A stretch of 64,000 bases of DNA from positions 57,834 through 121,833 of IMG/VR virus record IMGVR_UViG_3300013004_000030; one strand, written 5' to 3'. Origin of the DNA: a virus (taxonomy: Duplodnaviria > Caudoviricetes). The first letter of the stretch is position 1. Every line of letters starts with the position of its first letter. Under the pieces are notes generated by a model. It was given only the letters and a program-made list of their open reading frames with translations, searched no databases and was not told where the DNA came from. A program made the translations under genes and the position numbers. This document shows, one piece after another, positions 34,244 to 57,861 of the stretch.

Positions 34244-34882
34244 GTGGGATATTTGAATTATTCAAGCATAGATAAGCTTGGAGGTTCAAATCAATTGGAT
34301 AAAGGGCTAGGCAAAAAAATACTTGAACTGTATGAGAAGGGTTTTTCCTACAGAGAGATTAAGATGAAGTTGGGTTGTTCAAAAGGAACGGTCAGCTATC
34401 ACTGCGGGTCGGGACAGAAACAAAAGTCCAAAACAAGACAGCGCAAGGGTAGGGAAGACAATGTGTTGAGAACAAAGATTGAGAGGTTTACTGGTTCTTT
34501 GAACAAAAGCCGCCAACAAGAAAACAAAAAAGACGGCCGACTGATAAAAAAGATACTTCAAATTAAGATCACGCAATTCTCCTTAACTGGCAAGAGAAAA
34601 GACAAGAATGTGAGGTGCAAACTAATGTTTAAAACCAAAGACTTATTGACCAAAATAGGATCCAATCCTGTTTGTTATCTGACAGGTAGACCCATAAATT
34701 TGGAAGATGGCAAATCCTATCATCTAGATCACATATTGCCTAAAAGTAAGGGAGGAGACAATTCGTTAGATAACTGCGGTCTTGCATGCAAGGCCGCAAA
34801 CCAAGCAAAGACTGATTTGACGCTTGAAGAGTTTGTTCAACTATGCAAAGAGGTTGTAGAAAAAAACCAACCCGCCCAGTGA
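34244..34882 (+). CDS. HNH homing endonuclease with N-terminal HTH
   Basis: GFSYREI..KLGCSKGTVSYH; CYLTG..HLDHILP.SKGG.N..DN...C..AN..K. Confidence 0.85.
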   Translation: MGYLNYSSIDKLGGSNQLDKGLGKKILELYEKGFSYREIKMKLGCSKGTVSYHCGSGQKQKSKTRQRKGREDNVLRTKIERFTGSLNKSRQQENKKDGRLIKKILQIKITQFSLTGKRKDKNVRCKLMFKTKDLLTKIGSNPVCYLTGRPINLEDGKSYHLDHILPKSKGGDNSLDNCGLACKAANQAKTDLTLEEFVQLCKEVVEKNQPAQ

Positions 34883-34903: not shown

Positions 34904-35185
34904 TCCGAGAGGTGGGACTCGAACCCACAACCCCCAAATTATGCAATCCACTTCGGCTTTCGCCGCCAGATTTCTCTGTTCGTGGTCTGGACTATGCCTT
35001 CACCGTTGTTGTTGCCAACTTTAGGTGGGTGATTATAGTCTCTACACGTTCCCTTTCGGGCTTCGCTCGGCGTTGGGTCGTCCTTTCGGACAGGCCGTTC
35101 ACCGAATTTACACCTGACTAACCATTCGTTTCCAAATGGCCGACCCTTTAAAGTTTGACGCTCTGACCAATTGAGCTACTCTCGG
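34904..35185 (-). tRNA. tRNA(CAT), probably Ile2 or elongator Met, split by a group I intron
   Basis: Exons 35185-35152 and 34943-34904 splice to TCAAA-CT CAT AA-TTTGG; C1-G72 is paired, so not initiator. Confidence 0.88.
34944..35151 (-). mobile_element. Group I (IC3, Azoarcus-like) intron, 208 nt, after U33
   Basis: AAATTCGG..AACGCCGAGC, GTGTAGAGACTA, CACCCACCTAA, GGTGAAGGCATAGTCC core; terminal G; U.G pair in P1. Confidence 0.9.
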
Positions 35186-46111: not shown

Positions 46112-46171
46112 GAGCTACTTTGTCCTAATTGTCATGCGTTAACTGATAATTATCGTGGAAAAAATAAGTAA
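46112..46171 (+). pseudogene. C-terminal remnant of an HNH endonuclease
   Basis: ELLCPNCHALTDNYRGKNK*; stop overlaps the 3' end of tRNA-Leu(TAA). Confidence 0.65.
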
Positions 46172-46241
46172 CCCGGATCAGATTCGAACTGATACTTGAA
46201 GGTTCTTAAGACCTTTGTCTCTGCCGTTGGACTACCGGGTC
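46169..46241 (-). tRNA. tRNA-Leu(TAA), short variable loop
   Basis: GACCCGG/CCGGGTT; AAGGT-CT TAA GA-ACCTT. Confidence 0.88.
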
Positions 46242-49245: not shown

Positions 49246-52200
49246 TCAATTCACGCGAGCGGCCGAGTTTCCGGCCTTGTTCGGGTCGGAGTCGCAAGCG
49301 TCGATATACTTCTTGATGAGTACATCGTTCGGCAGTTCAAAACTCTTCATAACGAGGTAGGCGTGAATCTGCTCGGGCAGACGCACCGGGGCGAAAGCCC
49401 GGATCACATTGAAGGCGTACCTCACAGCGGCGTTGTGATCCTTCATCAATCCAACCTCAACTTCCTCCGGGAGGCGACCGCAAACAATCTCTTCCGCATA
49501 CTTGACGCAGTAGTCAGGGCTGTCGGCCAACTTCGCCTCCAGGTTGGCCGGAAGCCGTTGTCCCCGCATGATCATCTTTGCATACTGGTACAACTGAGAA
49601 CCGTCGCTCATCGTGTTTTCAAGATGCTCGGGAAGCCGCCCGACGATAATGGTCGATGCCAACTCGTAAAGCCGGTGGCTGTCCCCAGAGAGGCAGTCTT
49701 GTAGTTCCACATCAAGAGTTCTTCCATAAGTCTTCTGCAAGCGTCCGTATTCAATAATCGCCGAGTTGGAAGCCTTGAGCCGATTCTTCAGACCTTCCCT
49801 CAACACGCCGTTGGTGATGGCGGCGTACTTTGTGAGGATGTTTGCGATACCACCGGCATCGGCTCTATCGCTGGGAGAGAATACCTTTTCCTCAAGATGC
49901 TCCGGGAGCGGGCCTCGGATGAACTGGGCGTAGGAAAGGCAAAGGTTGGGATTGGAGAATGTGTCCTCCAGTTCGCTCGGCAACCTCCCACGCACAATGT
50001 TCTTCGCGTAAAGCAAGAGGTTTTCGTCGTCGCCCTTCAACTCGTCCACAAGTTCTTGGGGAAGATCAAGATCCCGCTGATGGAGCGATCCGAAGTAGGA
50101 AAGAATCGCCTTGTGGGAGGGCTTGAGCAACGCTTCCAGTTCAACATCAAGCTTGCCCACAAGCGAGGCGTAGGAAGCGACATTGCTGGCAACGCTCCTT
50201 GGATCTTCCTTGCCGCTGAAGAAGCACTTCTCGTTCTCTGCCGGAAGACGCTCCCGCTTGAAGTTGACCTGGCACCAGAGGACGAGGCGTCGCGTGTTAC
50301 GGAACTTGGGGATGTGCATCGTTTTTCTCCTTGGGATGTTCTTACAACTATCCGGGCAAAAGAAATCAAACCCTGACTACAGAGTTGCCCATCCTGCCAG
50401 GGTCGTTCTCGCTCGCCTCAATGTATGCCTTCACATACTTGTTGTCGGGGTCTTCAAAGCTCTTCATAATCATGAAGTTGTGAAGTTCCTCGGGAAGCCG
50501 CACAGAAGAAAATCCACGGATCACCTCAAAGGCGTACTTGCTCGCATAAAAGGCGTCCTTGAAGAAAACCCCCTCAAGTTGCGAGGGAAGACGACCCCTC
50601 AAAATCTGCTGGGCGTAAAAGAAACAGTGCTTGGGATCGTCAAATGTGTCCTCAAGGAACGACGGCAGCCTTCCGATGGTCTGAGCCCATCCGAAAAGCT
50701 GAGAGTTCTTTCCCTTGAAGCAATTAAGAAGGTCTTCGCTCACCTCTTCTTGGCGGCTGTGCAGAATCTTCGCATACCTCAGAACGGCACTCGGCTCGCA
50801 CTTGAGAAGTTCCTCAAACCTCGGCTCGAGCTTTCCGGTTCGGAACGCATACTCGGAAACATTGCAAGCGATGATTGACGGAGATTCCTTCTTGCTCTTG
50901 AAGAACACCTCTTCACGGTCCGATGGGAGGCGTGCCTTGTTCGTGTCGTAGTCGTGGATACACACCCAGTTGTTCTTCATCCAGAGAACAAGACGGTGGG
51001 TTGTGCGGAACTTTGGAATTTTGATGTCCATAACTTATCCCTTTCTAATTTCCTACTGTCCGGGGATTTATTTTTCAAGAACCCACATACGAAAGGTAGT
51101 CCCTCATGCTCTTCTTCTCCCATTCATACATTTCCTCATAACTCTTCAGCAGAATCATGTTGTGGATCTTCTCGGGAAACCTACCACGGATCACATGCCT
51201 TGCATACTGCCACATGTGGCTCATGCTCTTGAGGAAAACCTCTTCTTCGGTTTCTGAAAGCCTCCCGAAATTTTGAGCCCACTTAAAGGCGGTGGACGGA
51301 TCCTTACACAACTTCTTCCAGAACTTTTTCTGGGTCACTGGGTCGGAAAATTCCTTCTTCCCCATATAAACAAGATAACGCACACCGATCTCAGGATTCT
51401 TGATGAAGACCCTCTCGGCCTCGCTGCTGATGCCGATGTTCTTCATCACAAGTTGAGCGTACTTTAGAGCCGAACTAGGCACCCTACAAGTGATCCGCTC
51501 TATATCACGGTCATGAACCGGAGTCCAACACTTGTGCTTCCTAAGACTGTTGAGAACCGCGATGAGTTCACGGGCGTCGCCGGTGTAGTTGTTCACATCA
51601 AATGTGATCTCCATCACTCGTCCTCCGTGCAGATGTCCTTGAGGTACATGCTCACATACTGTCTGGCCTCGGGTTTTTCAAAACAACCGATGACAAGTGC
51701 GTTGTGAACAAAATCCGGTAGACGACCCTTCAGAACATGCTTCGCGTAAAGATGGGCGCTGTGGGGGTCGCTCGCAAAGACTTCCTCCAGTTTTCCGGGA
51801 AGACGAGCCTTCAGAATGTTTCTAGCGTAGAGGAAGGCGTAGTAGGGACGAGCCTTGAGCCTTCTTGCGATCTTGGGCGTGATCTTGGACATTCTTCAAA
51901 GTACCTCTTGATCCAAGTGTTTTCGGGGGTCTCATAACTCCACAACACCATGGCGCTGTGAAGCGTGTCTGGCACTTCACTGTCTTGGTTCAAAAAATAA
52001 ATCCACATGGGATCGGCCAGGAACTCAGCCTCAGTCCACTCGTCCCACGGCTTCCTCACCTTGTTGATGAACTCGGTGAGCTTGTTCGGGAATTCCCCCG
52101 AATACCTTCTGCCCGGATATTCCATCCTCTCGGCACTGATATTTATCGAGGGGATTTCCGCCCCGTCCCTGTGCTCGACCTCTAGGAAATAATAATGGCT

Positions 52201-52828
52201 CCCGTCGTCGAACCTCCACTCCTTCTTGGAAACCCCGCCCACCGACCAGGACACAGGACGGCCGAAAAAATCATCGGCCAATTCAAAAAGAACGCTGCTC
52301 GTCTTGTACGATGAACCAAGCTTGAAAGGCTTCATCCCCTAAAGTAGTAAAGGGGAGATTTTTGAAGTATTTCTTAATCAGAAGATCGTCTGGGTGCTGG
52401 TACGACAGAAGCACCATCTTGGCGTGCATTTTCTGGGAGACTAGATCGTTCTCCTCGGCAAACGCCACGATCCACTCGGGAGAAGATAAAATTTCATCCT
52501 CGGTCCAATCGCACCAAGGTTTCTTCACCTCGAGCACAAAAGATTGAATTTTTAACTGCTCGTGCTCGTAGTCGAGAAGATTGTTTCCCCATCTAAAGCT
52601 TATGTTGATGGTCTCTTCGCCCAGAGCGTGGCTGATGTTCAGCCGCCAGTCAGTCTGCCATTCCCATACTGTGATCGGACCCTTGTGGGGGTCGTCCCAT
52701 CGGCAATGCTTGTTGCTGGACTTGCCAAAGTGCCGTGCGGCGATCTCGAATATCTTATCGGAGTCGCCGACCAGCTCACTCTTCAGCTTGAACGGACTAA
52801 TGCTTTCATCGTCATAAAGAGGCATCAT
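49246..52828 (-). other. Six tandem family B genes (49246..50319, 50366..51031, 51075..51617, 51614..51892, 51811..52335, 52283..52828)
   Basis: Helical repeat YA..(I/V)..GRLP..LE and/or shared C-terminal H..(M/L)(V/I)..S(F/Y)..P.....(K/R).Y. Confidence 0.75.
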
Positions 52829-52835
52829 TTTAAAG

Positions 52836-53093
52836 TGGAGCAGCTGGGGCTCGAACCCAGGACCAACGGATTAACTTACCACTGTGACTTTCGCCACCCT
52901 TGCGGTTTGTGGTCTGGACTTTGCCTTCACCCATACGGTGCCGCCCGTCAAGTCTCTACACCTTCCCTTTCGGGCTTGGCTCGGCGTTGGCATTTTAAAG
53001 CGTTCGCCGACTTTGAGCGGTTCTACTCTCAAGGTTTCCCTCAAGGCACTCCTATTTTGAAGTCCGATGCTCTACCAACTGAGCTAATGCTCC
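52836..53093 (-). tRNA. tRNA-Lys(TTT) split by a group I intron
   Basis: Exons 53093-53060 and 52874-52836 splice to TCGGA-CT TTT AA-TCCGT. Confidence 0.88.
52875..53059 (-). mobile_element. Group I (IC3, Azoarcus-like) intron, 185 nt, after U34
   Basis: P1 ACUU|C..GGAGU with U.G at the splice site; AACGCCGAGCCAAGC, GGTGTAGAGACT, GGTGAAGGCAAAGTCC, GTGGCGAAAGTCAC; terminal G. Confidence 0.9.
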
Positions 53094-53098
53094 AAATG

Positions 53099-53186
53099 AA
53101 AAACAACGGCGTGAGGTTTCCTCCCGGACTAAGATGGCAGTGGAGACCACCAACCAGGATTCGTTAATTCTCACGCCGCTGTTTTT
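53099..53186 (-). ncRNA. Candidate ~88-nt structured RNA directly upstream of tRNA-Lys
   Basis: 17-bp closing stem AAAAACAGCGGCGTGAG/CTCACGCCGTTGTTTTT enclosing TCCTGG/CCGGGA. Confidence 0.45.
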
Positions 53187-53254
53187 AGGCCCTATACATA
53201 AATTATTCGACGATTTCCCACAATGCGGAAATCGTAGCCCACTAATCCATTAAA

Positions 53255-53458
53255 TTACCGACCCACCTTGCACTTGCCGTTGGGGCAGTAGGGCGGAGTG
53301 ATGACACGAACGGTTCCCCTGGTCACGCTGCGAACAGTGCTCACAGTGCCATTGGTCACCTTCCGAACCGCATTTACACCGCAATTGCCGTTCTTGCAGT
53401 CAGCGGCATGAGCCTCGACGCAGAAAAGAATTGCGGCACAAATCATAAGAGTACGCAT
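53255..53458 (-). CDS. Small secreted Cys-containing protein
   Basis: Signal peptide ..EAHA; CKNGNC and CPNGKC. Confidence 0.7.
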   Translation of the reverse strand: MRTLMICAAILFCVEAHAADCKNGNCGVNAVRKVTNGTVSTVRSVTRGTVRVITPPYCPNGKCKVGR

Positions 53459-53485
53459 ATTAGGATCCTCCTTTTAAAAAACGGC

Positions 53486-53854
53486 TCAACGCCACGAACG
53501 AACCCGATACCACATGCCGTTCCGGCCCTGAGCCGAAGCGTCGCCCGTCAGCGACATATTGCCGCTGGGGGTGCAAGTGTTGCAGTTAGGACTGCTGCCA
53601 TAGCCGACTCCCTCAAACCTGCCGATACATCCCCAGACATGCCCGGTGATGTTGTTGGCAGCCATGTAGTTCGCCTCGGCCTGACACCGATCTTGGTCAC
53701 TGCCGCTTGCCGCCGAATGATCGGAGGTGTAGGAGTATGTCTTCGTCGGCTGGGAATAGGTAGGAGTAGAGTAGGTATAACCCCGTCGCGGACGAGCATG
53801 GGCAACACCGCTCGACAGCACACAGAACGCCAGTGCAACGATTGCACTCTTCAT
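53486..53854 (-). CDS. Secreted protein with minimal CAP/SCP-like domain
   Basis: Signal peptide; A.YMA..GH..EGVG..C..A.G.NG.WY..R.W. Confidence 0.65.
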   Translation of the reverse strand: MKSAIVALAFCVLSSGVAHARPRRGYTYSTPTYSQPTKTYSYTSDHSAASGSDQDRCQAEANYMAANNITGHVWGCIGRFEGVGYGSSPNCNTCTPSGNMSLTGDASAQGRNGMWYRVRSWR

Positions 53855-53960
53855 AAAAACCTCCGTGAAATGGCGGCGGCTGACACGAGCCTCCGCTTCC
53901 TTTTGAACTATCCCGTGTCGGATTTTCCAAGTAACAGTCTAAAGAAACATGAACTTGAAG

Positions 53961-54530
53961 TCAAGTTTCAATTTCATTGAACATATTCTCCCAGTAGCCA
54001 TCGGCCTTGAACTTCCAGATGCTATCCACCAGGATTCGGGCAACTGAGATCGGGTTGGGAGATGATCCGCACACGACCTCCTCGGCATCAGGCGGCTCCC
54101 AATAGGTGGCGGGAATGTGCTGGTAGTAGCTAACAATATAGCACGGAAGTTCCCTGAACGACGCAATCGTCTCGGTCTCCGTAACACCCGCAGCCACGCT
54201 TACTCCCGCAACCGTGATCGTCCGCTCGTTTTCGTCAACCTCCACTGACTCGCCCGGAAAGAAATGACCAACAGCATCGTTCACGACAGTCTTGAGGCGC
54301 TCCCAGTTGTTCTCGGAAAATTCCTCGAGCGTGGTGCAGAACCCGTCCTTGTACTCGGCGGGCTCCCAGAGCTTCACCTCGTTCCACGCGAGAACAAGGT
54401 TCTGCCCCGCAACCTTAACCTCGTGGTTATTGTCGCGTTGGCCAACATACTCTCCCACAATCCACCTGGGCTTTTTCATCAATCCAATCTTGACGAAAGC
54501 CTTGATCTTGACTCCGGACTTCATTCTCAT
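53961..54530 (-). CDS. Hypothetical protein
   Basis: 189 aa; PATYWEPP motif; elements on both sides. Confidence 0.7.
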   Translation of the reverse strand: MRMKSGVKIKAFVKIGLMKKPRWIVGEYVGQRDNNHEVKVAGQNLVLAWNEVKLWEPAEYKDGFCTTLEEFSENNWERLKTVVNDAVGHFFPGESVEVDENERTITVAGVSVAAGVTETETIASFRELPCYIVSYYQHIPATYWEPPDAEEVVCGSSPNPISVARILVDSIWKFKADGYWENMFNEIET

Positions 54531-55381: not shown

Positions 55382-56656
55382 CTAGTTGCTGTCGTTGTCT
55401 ACATCTACGCGAACCACATCACCGAACGGGGGAGTGACCGATTGGTTGGTCAGCACCCAAAGAACATCAAACTTGCTGGTCGGATCGTCACCGAAGTTGC
55501 CGTACCCATCGGTGAAGAACACCGTGTAGTCGGGCTGGATTCTCTTCTCAATGAGGTGCTGGAACACCGGGGCGAAGTCGGTGCCGCCGCCGCCTTGAAG
55601 GGCGGGCAGAGGCTCATACGGGTCAATCCAGCGGCTCTCATACACACCAGCATCGCAGTCAAGGAAGTAAATCTTCGCATTGAACTTCCGGCGAATGTCC
55701 TCCAACTCCCCGATTGCTTGCTTCAAGTCGCTCTCGCTCATGCTGCCCGAAGTGTCAATCGCAAAGGCGATCTTCGGTGCGTCGGGGCCAATGTTGCTGG
55801 GGAAGATGTAGGGAGCCGAAAGGAACCGGCGGTTAGGCACAGTCCATGTAATGTCACGGGACGCCTTACGGGACGCACCGAACCGCAACCGCTGCCGAAG
55901 GGCTTGCAACCAGTTCACCTTGGGCTTGAGGTAGCCCACGATAACACGCTCCATACCGGCGGGCATGGAACCTTGGTTCTTGGCACAAGTGTAAGCCTCG
56001 CAGATGGCAGACCGAATGTAGTCCTTCATCTCTTGATCGTGCTGCTCCTTGCTCTGCCCCGGCTTCTTCTCCGGCAGAGGAACGCGACGGTCACGAATGA
56101 CAACCACATCACCATCACCGGGCATCTCGCCGGAACCCTCACCATCACCCTCGCCGGAACCGTTTAGGTCAACGACATACACCTTGCGACCACCAGTGCC
56201 GTTCTTCTCAAGTTCCTCGTAGATACGCTCCGCCGTCATGCCCTCGTACTTATCGTCAAGGAGGGTTTCCTTGATGAGAAAGTCGGGCTTCTCAAACTGG
56301 AACTTGAGCATGAGGTTGATGGCGAAGTCCGTAGCCATGTTCCACATCATCGGATCGCGGCTGCCCATGCGACCGCTATGCTCAAAGATGAAGTGACACA
56401 GTTCGTGGGCGACGAGGAAAAGAAACTGCTTGACCGTCAACTTGTCATAGAAGTCAAGGTTGAAGATCACATTGCCGTACTTGTCAATACAAGCCGTCTG
56501 GCAGAAGTGATCCTTCCCGGCCACTACGCTGAAACTGCACCGCTCGCTCATCACGCCCCAAAAGGGGAACTCGCGGGCGAAGGCCAGCATCACAATGTCA
56601 ATGTTCTTCTTGAACTGGTCGAGCCGAGACTTTTCAATGGCGGAAACTGCGGTCAT
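55382..56656 (-). CDS. Metallopeptidase-vWA protein (DUF2201-like)
   Basis: HELCH..H..R, WN.A.D..IN; MIDAS DTSGSM, GGGGTDF.PVF, FTDGYG. Confidence 0.88.
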   Translation of the reverse strand: MTAVSAIEKSRLDQFKKNIDIVMLAFAREFPFWGVMSERCSFSVVAGKDHFCQTACIDKYGNVIFNLDFYDKLTVKQFLFLVAHELCHFIFEHSGRMGSRDPMMWNMATDFAINLMLKFQFEKPDFLIKETLLDDKYEGMTAERIYEELEKNGTGGRKVYVVDLNGSGEGDGEGSGEMPGDGDVVVIRDRRVPLPEKKPGQSKEQHDQEMKDYIRSAICEAYTCAKNQGSMPAGMERVIVGYLKPKVNWLQALRQRLRFGASRKASRDITWTVPNRRFLSAPYIFPSNIGPDAPKIAFAIDTSGSMSESDLKQAIGELEDIRRKFNAKIYFLDCDAGVYESRWIDPYEPLPALQGGGGTDFAPVFQHLIEKRIQPDYTVFFTDGYGNFGDDPTSKFDVLWVLTNQSVTPPFGDVVRVDVDNDSN

Positions 56657-56769
56657 GGTTGTTCTCCTTATGCACCACTCACCGTCCAGGATTTTATTTT
56701 CAAGAAAGGGAACCCCCGTCCTCCCGAAGGTAGCGAACCCATCGGGAGGACGGTGGCCCACACGCTTTC

Positions 56770-57861
56770 TCAAGTCACGGTGATGGCACCGTGGAGGATT
56801 TCGCTGTTCGCCTTGATCCACGCGGCAACCGCCTTGGAGTGGAACAGTGCCGTCTTGATCTTCTCCGGTGCCGTCAGCATGATGCGACGGTAGAACAGAC
56901 TGGCCGGTTCCGGCGAGATACCCGAAATCACCTTCACGCAGTTCTCCAAAACCTTCTCGGGAGTCTCATGCGAAAGAAGATGCGAGGCCACCGCGTTCGC
57001 CACGGCATAGGCCACCGAAATCTCCTTCCGGTTCTCCGTAAAGGTCTCCTTGCCCTCCACCAGACGGGCGATGTTCGGGAGCGATGCACACACCTTGAGG
57101 TACGCACAGAACTCCGAACTAACAGCACCCACGCAAGCCCGAATCTGGCTCATCGCGTTCTGCCCCGCCTTGAGCCGCTTGCTCACATAACACCACGACC
57201 GGGGATTGGCCGACGCACTGTACTCGTCCTTGCGGGGCGACAACAGCGACGAAGGCGAGAACGAAATGAAACCAATCACATCGGGGTGGACATCGTTCGT
57301 CATCGCCCACTTCGTCCAGTGGTGATGGTCGGGACTGTAATCATAGATCGCAAAACGATCCAGAAGGGCAGCCGACAGCGGATAGGTGTGAGCACGATCC
57401 TCCGCACGGTTCGCAGCAGCACAGATGTACCACGACCGGGGCAACTCATGCTTGCCGATCTTGCGATCCAACACCAACTGCAAGGCCGGATTCTGCACCG
57501 AAGGCTGGGCGGTGTTCAACTCGTCCAGAAACACAATGCCCTTCGTGTAGAGGCGACCGTTCGCCACGATCCCACCCTCGCTCGGAAGGAACTCGGGACG
57601 AACCCACTCCACCGCAACCGGATTCTTGTTCTCGTCCTTCTTGATGATCGGGAGGCCACGCATGTCAATCGCCTCCAAACTGTTCAGCCGAAGGTCAATC
57701 ACCAGATCATCCTCGTCCGCAGACGCACGGATCTGATCGCTCTTGCCCACCCCCGGCGAACCAAACACCAGAAGCGGCTGATCCACCTCGCGGCAAGCAC
57801 GAACCTCCGCAGTCAGATCGCCAGAAATCGGGTTGCCCTTCTCAATAAGCGTGTCGGCCAT
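56770..57861 (-). CDS. MoxR-like AAA+ ATPase
   Basis: Walker A GSPGVGKS, Walker B FLDELN, AANR.ED, L.DRF, PRSW. Confidence 0.9.
   Translation of the reverse strand: MADTLIEKGNPISGDLTAEVRACREVDQPLLVFGSPGVGKSDQIRASADEDDLVIDLRLNSLEAIDMRGLPIIKKDENKNPVAVEWVRPEFLPSEGGIVANGRLYTKGIVFLDELNTAQPSVQNPALQLVLDRKIGKHELPRSWYICAAANRAEDRAHTYPLSAALLDRFAIYDYSPDHHHWTKWAMTNDVHPDVIGFISFSPSSLLSPRKDEYSASANPRSWCYVSKRLKAGQNAMSQIRACVGAVSSEFCAYLKVCASLPNIARLVEGKETFTENRKEISVAYAVANAVASHLLSHETPEKVLENCVKVISGISPEPASLFYRRIMLTAPEKIKTALFHSKAVAAWIKANSEILHGAITVT

Follow-up and report, generated by a model that had tools for sequence, protein, structure and literature searches.

The split tRNA-Lys gene

The window, by which we mean the whole stretch of DNA that was analysed, comprises the final 64,000 nucleotides (nt; positions 57,834 to 121,833) of the 121,833-base IMG/VR virus record IMGVR_UViG_3300013004_000030, whose completeness is put at 24% by CheckV. 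Its larger open reading frames (ORFs) match the phage families virion structural protein, DNA ligase and ATPase. Positions 53093 to 52836, read on the minus strand, very probably form the tRNA-Lys(UUU) gene of a large uncultured lake-water phage in which a group I intron separates U34 from U35 (Table 1), and that a real group I intron occupies this junction of a tRNA-Lys gene we regard as close to certain. The intron belongs to the compact tRNA class that bacteria and plastids carry in tRNA-Leu(UAA); its kind is already known, and the window intron is a further member. A sequence-only reading, made by a model from the letters of the window, had placed a 185-nt group I intron in a phage tRNA-Lys(UUU) gene at these positions; coordinates and length prove exact, the strand, which it left unstated, is minus, and the intron itself is borne out by the covariance model and the covariation described below.

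Table 1. Positions of the two intron-split tRNA genes and of the elements of the tRNA-Lys intron, in window coordinates
Feature	Position	Strand	Composition or basis
tRNA-Lys(UUU) gene	53093-52836	minus	34-nt 5′ exon, 185-nt intron, 39-nt 3′ exon
5′ exon: acceptor 5′ strand, D arm, anticodon stem 5′ strand, C32 U33 U34	53093-53060	minus	direct reading; start at 53093 also from ARAGORN with introns allowed (ARAGORN -i)
Group I intron, 185 nt, no ORF, compact tRNA (IC3) type, final base G	53059-52875	minus	RF00028, covariance model R1, covariation
P1: A31-U34 and first intron base (53063-53059) with intron bases 8-12 (53052-53048); U34.G at splice site	53048..53063	minus	
P2 hairpin, 7 base pairs (bp), GAAA tetraloop 53038-53035	53028..53045	minus	all 7 pairs change on both sides among relatives
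Catalytic core: P3, P4, mini-P5, P6/P6a, P7, P8	52916..53020	minus	pairing counts, invariant columns
P3, and P7 crossing it as a pseudoknot	P3 53020-53015 with 52946-52941; P7 52956-52951 with 52920-52916	minus	
Truncated P8: 4-bp stem, 5-nt loop	52928..52940	minus	alignment gaps
3′ domain: closing helix 52912-52909 with 52882-52879 around two hairpins (GCAA loop; GAAA loop 52892-52889)	52879..52912	minus	
Terminal (omega) G	52875	minus	invariant, 31/31 sequences
3′ exon: U35 U36 A37 A38, anticodon stem 3′ strand, variable loop, T arm, acceptor 3′ strand, A73	52874-52836	minus	direct reading; ARAGORN -i
Second intron-split gene, tRNA(CAU)	35185-34903	minus	208-nt group I intron 35151-34944 after U33

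The 3′ exon ends at the discriminator A73, the A at 52836, and CCA is not encoded. Six lake-water DNA runs from the years 2018-2024 contain 0.89-0.99 of the words sampled from the tRNA-Lys stretch, four of these runs possibly being the source sample, and a contig of one of the runs examined (X6) is identical to the window over 52843-52974, short P8 included.

Fold of the intron

Helices P1 to P9 were drawn by hand and their pairs counted on a MAFFT alignment of 31 sequences (the window intron and 30 relatives) that was not fitted to the structure. All of these helices form with standard pairs in the window intron, and across the alignment 96.4% of the 1570 cells pair, compared with 28-41% when the partners are slid by 1-3 columns. 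Changes on both sides are seen in 27 of the 51 pairs, and none of 500 shuffles reaches the observed covariation score. The core helices P3, P4, P5, P6, P7 and P8 are 93-100% paired (P3, P5 and P7 100%, P4 99.5%), with P3, P5 and P8 changing on both sides; P7 is invariant and therefore carries no covariation signal. Pairing in the 3′-domain helices reaches 94.8-99.2%, again with both-sided changes, and at each of the alignment's 80 invariant columns the window intron has the conserved base. For the 196-nt stretch the minimum free energy (MFE) corresponds to a z-score of -3.21, and the single-sequence MFE fold recovers P4, P5, P8 and the 3′ (P9) domain; that P1, P3 and P7 do not appear in it is expected, because the ribozyme is pseudoknotted.

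Covariance models place the intron at the same position. RF00028 (Rfam Intron_gpI), the search that the sequence-only reading had proposed as a check, gives a match over the full length of the model (1-253) at 52894-53069(-), with 44.1 bits and an E-value of 7.1e-10. A second model, R1, was made from 29 related introns aligned with the window intron left out, its structure chosen by RNAalifold, and consists mostly of tRNA-Leu(UAA) introns. Its end-to-end match at 52870-53065(-) scores 201.6 bits (E 9e-61), with a sole sizeable gap, of 10 positions, in P8, and sets both intron ends in register with those of the 29 relatives.

Splice junction and tRNA identity

Within P1, U34 stands opposite intron base G9, and the C-G, U-A and U.G pairs are each found in 31/31 aligned sequences; U33, U34, the guide G-A-G and the terminal G are likewise invariant in all 31. 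Intron bases 6-8 (53054-53052) can pair with U35 U36 A37 as P10 at three positions of three. The same guide part, UAG, faces exon UUA with 3/3 pairs in all five Lys(UUU) introns compared, and in other tRNAs the corresponding bases follow the exon: among the matches listed, AAA faces UUU with 3/3 pairs in 41 of 103 Leu(UAA) introns, the next four Leu(UAA) exon and guide combinations (43 introns) form 2/3 pairs, and in Thr(UGU) introns GUA faces UAC in 2/5, the other 3/5 forming one pair of three. Together the U34.G pair, the terminal G and the 3-bp P10 put the predicted junction at U34|U35, and hence the anticodon is read as UUU (Lys) and not GUU (Asn). The sequence-only reading had fixed the insertion point from the U.G pair and the terminal G, and the invariance of both, together with P10 and the identity of the joined tRNA, upholds it.

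When the exons are joined by their coordinates they make a 73-nt cloverleaf with a 7-nt anticodon loop, which ARAGORN calls tRNA-Lys(ttt). In blastn comparisons with phage records, the 40 rows listed for the 5′ exon include 19 tRNA-Lys, 4 Gln, 3 Arg, 1 Thr and no Asn, and the 40 listed for the 3′ exon include 14 Lys, 5 Asn, 3 Met, 1 Arg and 2 labelled 'OTHER'. A discriminator A73 follows the rule for tRNA-Lys, bacterial tRNA-Asn having G73, and the Lys-intron relatives whose sequences were printed also have A73.

From the sequence we infer a splicing pathway in which the precursor RNA would fold so that exon A31-U34 and the intron guide form P1, with the U34.G pair at the cleavage site. A free guanosine held in P7 would attack after U34, and the terminal G (52875) would next occupy the same P7 pocket while the guide holds U35 U36 A37 as P10. 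The freed 3′-OH of U34 would then join U35, yielding the 73-nt tRNA with the anticodon loop C U U / U U A A, which host enzymes would trim and provide with CCA.

Related introns in phages and bacteria

A scan with a 20-base core motif found at least 119 places in viral contigs and at least 120 in bacterial genomes. ARAGORN, with introns allowed, draws a tRNA across 191 of 245 motif places, and a rule based on the anticodon arm classified 160 of these, with 31 left unclassified. Among the matches listed, Leu(UAA) introns at site 3, the position after U34, number 103; tRNA(CAU) introns at site 5 and at site 2 number 11 each, Arg(CCU) at site 5 six, Thr(UGU) at site 3 five, Lys(UUU) at site 3 four in addition to the window copy, Arg(UCU) at site 2 four and Lys(CUU) at site 4 two, smaller classes making up the remainder of the 160. 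These class counts are approximate because the classifier errs: it rejected the window gene for its U27.U43 pair, so that the class was set by hand, called one locus (L101) Asp(GUC) that by eye is Leu(UAA), and called another (L223) Asn.

Of the 54 places returned by a separate scan for the Lys 3′ junction, 12 are complete tRNA-Lys(UUU) genes whose introns measure 181-204 nt, 4 show the junction only and 38 are chance matches. A complete tRNA-Lys(UUU) intron at U34|U35 is therefore present in at least 15 other viral contigs (four found by the core motif and 12 by the junction, one contig being shared), and one bacterium, Tsukamurella sp. 8F (L223), has the same guide motif and junction. Since a single 20-base motif leads to so many places in viral contigs, mostly intron-split tRNA genes, the locus exemplifies a widespread and barely published element. 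In the tRNA-Lys(CUU) genes of a viral contig (L024) and of a metagenome-assembled genome of Pyrinomonadaceae (L143), a related intron is inserted one base later, between U35 and U36.

In blastn searches of phage records the same core turns up in tRNA-Leu(UAA) genes belonging to two huge uncultured phages, LR756501 and LR756511, and in the split capsid genes of two pelagiphages. In the 595-kilobase (kb) phage LR756511 the tRNA-Leu(UAA) gene (locus L003, 408814-410280) contains a 700-nt intron of the family with an inserted ORF, in which a putative HNH-like motif was seen. The pelagiphages are Pelagibacter phage HTVC120P and a deep-sea relative, whose records carry no intron annotation; in each, the core (loci L004, MH598807 19253-20171, and L005, KT997847 21730-22635) lies between two ORFs that are both annotated 'capsid protein', for which reason the capsid gene is taken to be split by a group I intron, and RF00028 gives 48.6 and 78 bits.

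The best global identities of the window intron, among the matches listed, are 77.3% to Lys and to Leu site-3 introns, 75.5% to Glu, 74.1% to Thr and 59.1% to CAU site-5 introns. Its nearest kin among the matches listed are two mutually identical copies over the compared stretch, L265 and L275, on contigs of 381 kb and 146 kb, with which the window shares 227 identical positions in 280 aligned columns of tRNA and intron; the intron is 81% identical and the tRNA body near-identical, U27.U43 included. Where the window intron differs from L265 in P2, P3, P9a and P9b, the pairing is preserved, and this speaks for selection acting on the fold.

Comparison with the tRNA-Leu(UAA) intron (Leu.3Ug), known from bacteria, cyanobacteria and plastids and present in the phages LR756501 and LR756511, shows the same insertion after U34, the same exon end ...ACUU on a G-A-G guide and the same P1-P9 layout, P2 and P9 both bearing GAAA loops. 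The window intron differs in its host, Lys(UUU), in the P10 part of its guide, which is UAG instead of UUU, in a P8 that has no receptor motif, and in its short length of 185 nt. The Lys(UUU) introns, in viral contigs and in Tsukamurella sp. 8F, have the tRNA, the junction and the guide motif AUAGGAG in common in 5/5 compared. They are of at least two structural kinds, one in which P2 carries a GGAA loop and P8 is short (L043, L119, L012), the other with a GAAA loop and a receptor-bearing P8 (L265, L262); the window copy has the P2 of the second kind but has lost the receptor. With the Azoarcus-type intron of tRNA-Ile(CAU), or Ile2.5Ug, the window intron has in common its compactness, the lack of an ORF, a place in a tRNA anticodon loop and the core motifs, and the GAAA hairpin near its 3′ end recurs in two CAU site-5 members (L042, L112). 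Ile2.5Ug, however, is inserted after position 36 of a CAU tRNA and not after position 34 of a UUU tRNA, and the best of 11 CAU site-5 members among the matches listed is 59.1% identical, a comparison with members of the class and not with the Azoarcus sequence itself, no Azoarcus record being among the bacterial matches listed. The close likeness to Azoarcus that the sequence-only reading had seen in the core is therefore real as far as the shared core goes, but the closest kin are the Leu and Lys site-3 introns, at 77.3-81%.

Movement between tRNA classes

When 84 site-3 introns are placed on a maximum-likelihood tree, eight changes are required to explain the Lys label, starred branches forcing at least three of them, and no bootstrap tree groups the Lys introns together. 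The hypothesis that the 12 Lys introns form one clade is rejected (p 0.0059) by an approximately unbiased (AU) test that was run after the tree had been seen. The guide region was kept in the tree alignment, which should favour grouping by host tRNA. The tree and the test together indicate repeated movement of introns between Leu(UAA) and Lys(UUU) genes. The window intron is interleaved with Leu(UAA) introns on the tree and was presumably acquired from a tRNA gene of a neighbouring class. Because the exon ends in ...ACUU in both Leu(UAA) and Lys(UUU), such a transfer would have required no change in the guide beyond its P10 part. At 46168-46241(-) the phage has a tRNA-Leu(UAA) gene of its own; it is intron-less, though this tRNA is the commonest home of the intron family.

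The truncated P8

In Azoarcus a P8 motif of the type CCUAAG...UAUGG receives the GAAA loop of P2. Most of the aligned relatives have a receptor of this kind, and the window intron, which keeps the GAAA loop of P2, is without it; its P8 is 13 nt shorter than that of its nearest kin L265. The sequence-only reading had described P5, P6 and P8 as reduced, and for P8 this is special to the window copy, whereas a small P5 and P6 are common to most phage relatives. The length of 185 nt is short: among the matches listed, the 160 classified introns have a median of 217 nt, and five of them are no longer than 185 nt; other Lys(UUU) introns measure 181-184 nt. A contig from one further run (X5), which comes from the same lake habitat, covers window positions 52843-53019 with a variant that differs at 12 letters, has a P8 loop about 13 bases longer and resembles the L265 type.

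Weighing the interpretation

Several observations count against the account given so far. The RF00028 score of 44.1 bits lies below the gathering score of 50, and a default Rfam scan is consequently silent on the intron; two relatives, L002 and L005, exceed the cut-off with 56.6 and 78 bits. Two pairs of the joined tRNA are non-standard: U27.U43, in the anticodon stem, is common to L265 and L275, but U7.C66, in the acceptor stem, is not. The anticodon loop would still have 7 nt if both intron ends were shifted by one base, and the exons alone leave Lys and Asn undecided; in a panel of 79 tRNAs from the fetched loci, which is too small for the purpose, identical positions number 59 for Lys, 59 for Met and 54 for Asn. 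As regards splicing, the runs listed with the stretch are all DNA and none RNA, and the missing P8 receptor for the GAAA loop of P2 may weaken folding. As regards current mobility, Pfam and PHROGs reveal no homing endonuclease in the intron or, among seven neighbouring ORFs, beside it. The comparison set is biased: both collection scans were seeded with one core motif, and their counts are lower bounds. The AU test is post hoc.

Of the readings that would replace this account, the one in which there is no intron, and the resemblance is due to chance or to an assembly artefact, has a practically negligible probability, for beside an RF00028 score under its threshold stand the E-value of 9e-61 for the family model R1, the covariation that backs the fold, flanks that are exact tRNA halves, and the presence of the same sequence in contigs of several runs. 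A real intron whose junction lies one base earlier, with the 5′ exon ending at U33 and the 3′ exon starting at what we read as the last intron G, would make the gene a tRNA-Asn(GUU). Such a junction preserves the size of the anticodon loop; the anticodon stem and 3′ exon do resemble some tRNA-Asn genes (5 of the 40 rows listed), and the rule-based classifier chose Asn, with a junction after U33, for the Tsukamurella relative L223. The base before the cut would then, however, be U33, which is Watson-Crick paired to an A in P1 and does not face a G, and the last intron base would be A and not G; the 31-sequence alignment shows no variation in either the U34.G pair or the terminal G. P10 forms 3/3 pairs in the Lys register only, A73 accords with Lys identity, the rows listed for the 5′ exon hold no Asn against 19 Lys, and the guide motif of L223 is that of the Lys introns; a tRNA-Asn gene is accordingly very improbable. 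What remains is the condition of the intron. It could be a decaying copy in which the P8 receptor has been deleted and useful folding and splicing lost, leaving the tRNA-Lys gene in effect a dispensable pseudogene. P8 is down to 4 bp and a 5-nt loop, where that of the nearest kin is 13 nt longer with a receptor-like motif; U7.C66 is absent from those kin; RF00028 scores under its cut-off, and the listed runs that hold the stretch include no RNA run. Against this, all other helices are intact and 80/80 invariant columns are present, P2, P3 and P9 differ from those of L265 in a compensatory manner, pointing to selection on the fold after the lineages split, and R1 scores 201.6 bits with its gap in P8 alone. 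The short-P8 form is also unchanged in run X6, which is not flagged as source, and the other Lys introns of 181-184 nt have a different short P8. Azoarcus ribozymes with broken tetraloop contacts, moreover, still work at higher Mg. We regard decay as unlikely and think it probable, from these features of the sequence, that the window intron still splices well enough for a working tRNA.

Contigs of runs X6, X7 and X8 join 52874 to 53060 and so skip 185 bases. These joins do not count here as evidence, the shorter side measuring only 20 letters and the likeness threshold being 85%. Contigs of X6 and X8 also join 52873 to 53060, with 186 bases skipped, and the joins of both lengths most likely derive from intron-less tRNA genes of other organisms.

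Detection of the gene and the second split tRNA

Neither default ARAGORN nor the Rfam tRNA model detects the tRNA-Lys gene; with introns allowed, ARAGORN locates the right span but calls it wrongly, as tRNA-Ala(GGC) with a 162-nt intron. The sequence-only reading had expected standard finders to miss the gene or to miscall it as Asn; they do miss it, but the miscall is Ala. The portion of the tRNAscan-SE 2.0 paper available to us states that the program was not designed for such introns (PMC8450103).

Applied to the record, R1 finds one further intron, at 34939-35156(-), with 117.8 bits (RF00028 gives 26.4 bits there), in a tRNA(CAU) gene that ARAGORN with introns allowed miscalls as tRNA-Stop(tta). 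The acceptor end of this tRNA is C1-G72, and it is therefore probably an elongator Met or an Ile2 tRNA and not the initiator. A 212-amino-acid ORF at 34244-34882(+), convergent with the tRNA(CAU) gene and 21 bases from its 3′ end, matches HNH endonuclease families (phrog_6050, E 1e-27), and may, to judge by this match and its position, be a free-standing homing endonuclease serving the tRNA(CAU) intron. The seven other tRNA genes of the record are intact, tRNA-Leu(UAA) included, and neither a second tRNA-Lys nor a tRNA-Asn is among the tRNA genes found in it. Standard annotation would count two tRNA genes too few for this phage.

Neighbouring sequences

A 181-amino-acid ORF within 52283-52828(-) begins 8 bases past the end of the tRNA-Lys gene, and for it and the other small ORFs around the gene (seven in all, 50366-54530) Pfam and PHROGs gave no match. 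A scan for promoters and terminators found nothing that exceeded shuffled expectation. Directly upstream of the gene, at 53098-53186(-), a perfect 17-bp stem encloses about 52 nt and is followed by a U run; this stem-loop has an MFE of -40.8 kcal/mol (z -4.37) and no Rfam family match, and might act as a terminator for the gene upstream or as a signal for processing. At 55382-57861(-) lies a gene pair in which a gene for a DUF2201 metallopeptidase-like and VWA-like protein (Pfam E 1e-32) overlaps the end of an ATPase gene (phrog_1297) by about 50 bases; the PHROGs label 'HNH endonuclease' for the family of the metallopeptidase-like protein looks like a mislabel.

Implications

Phage introns seen up to 2014 were all in protein-coding genes, according to the available part of Hausner et al. 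2014 (PMC3984707). Williams 2020 raised the bacterial tRNA classes from four (Leu.3Ug, Arg.5Ug, fMet.2Ug and Ile2.5Ug) to 21, found the U-1/G-omega pair in 98.5% of raw calls and noted that a database marks Leu.3Ug as subgroup IC3; its running text, Table 1 and supplements aside, names neither 'Lys' as a tRNA nor 'phage' (bioRxiv 10.1101/2020.01.27.920355). With 21 classes, and with Lys(UUU) introns in at least 15 other viral contigs, the list of Leu, fMet, Ile and Arg as classical hosts, from which the sequence-only reading set this intron apart, is out of date. Our literature search found no paper describing a group I intron in a phage tRNA-Lys gene. A parallel is offered by the tRNA introns of the Lak megaphages, which Devoto et al. 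2019, in the part of the article available to us, report as previously unreported to their knowledge and 'enigmatic', with no class assigned in that part (PMC6784885). Both cases concern very large uncultured phages whose split tRNA genes are missed by bacterial-mode tRNA finders; the Lak phages are low-GC gut phages and the window phage comes from a lake, and the two are likened here by description only, as far as that part of the article describes them.

We prefer to see the interest of the window copy itself in its missing P8 receptor. A further-reaching picture, which we put forward tentatively and consider rather doubtful as a whole, is that of a naturally pared-down ribozyme that still splices without the clamp between P2 loop and P8 receptor, that has persisted for years in a lake phage population, and that forms part of a large and essentially undescribed site-3 radiation, hopping among phage tRNA genes whose exon ends in ...CUU (Leu-UAA, Lys-UUU, Thr-UGU, Glu-UUC and Arg-UCU) by way of three retuned P10 guide bases. 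Were this picture true, the family would supply natural ribozymes of 181-185 nt, smaller than the Azoarcus model, for which 205 nt is given in the available part of the source (PMC13168695), and would offer a worked example of a self-splicing intron changing its target gene. If the window intron does splice, it would amount to a natural experiment on which parts of a compact ribozyme are dispensable.

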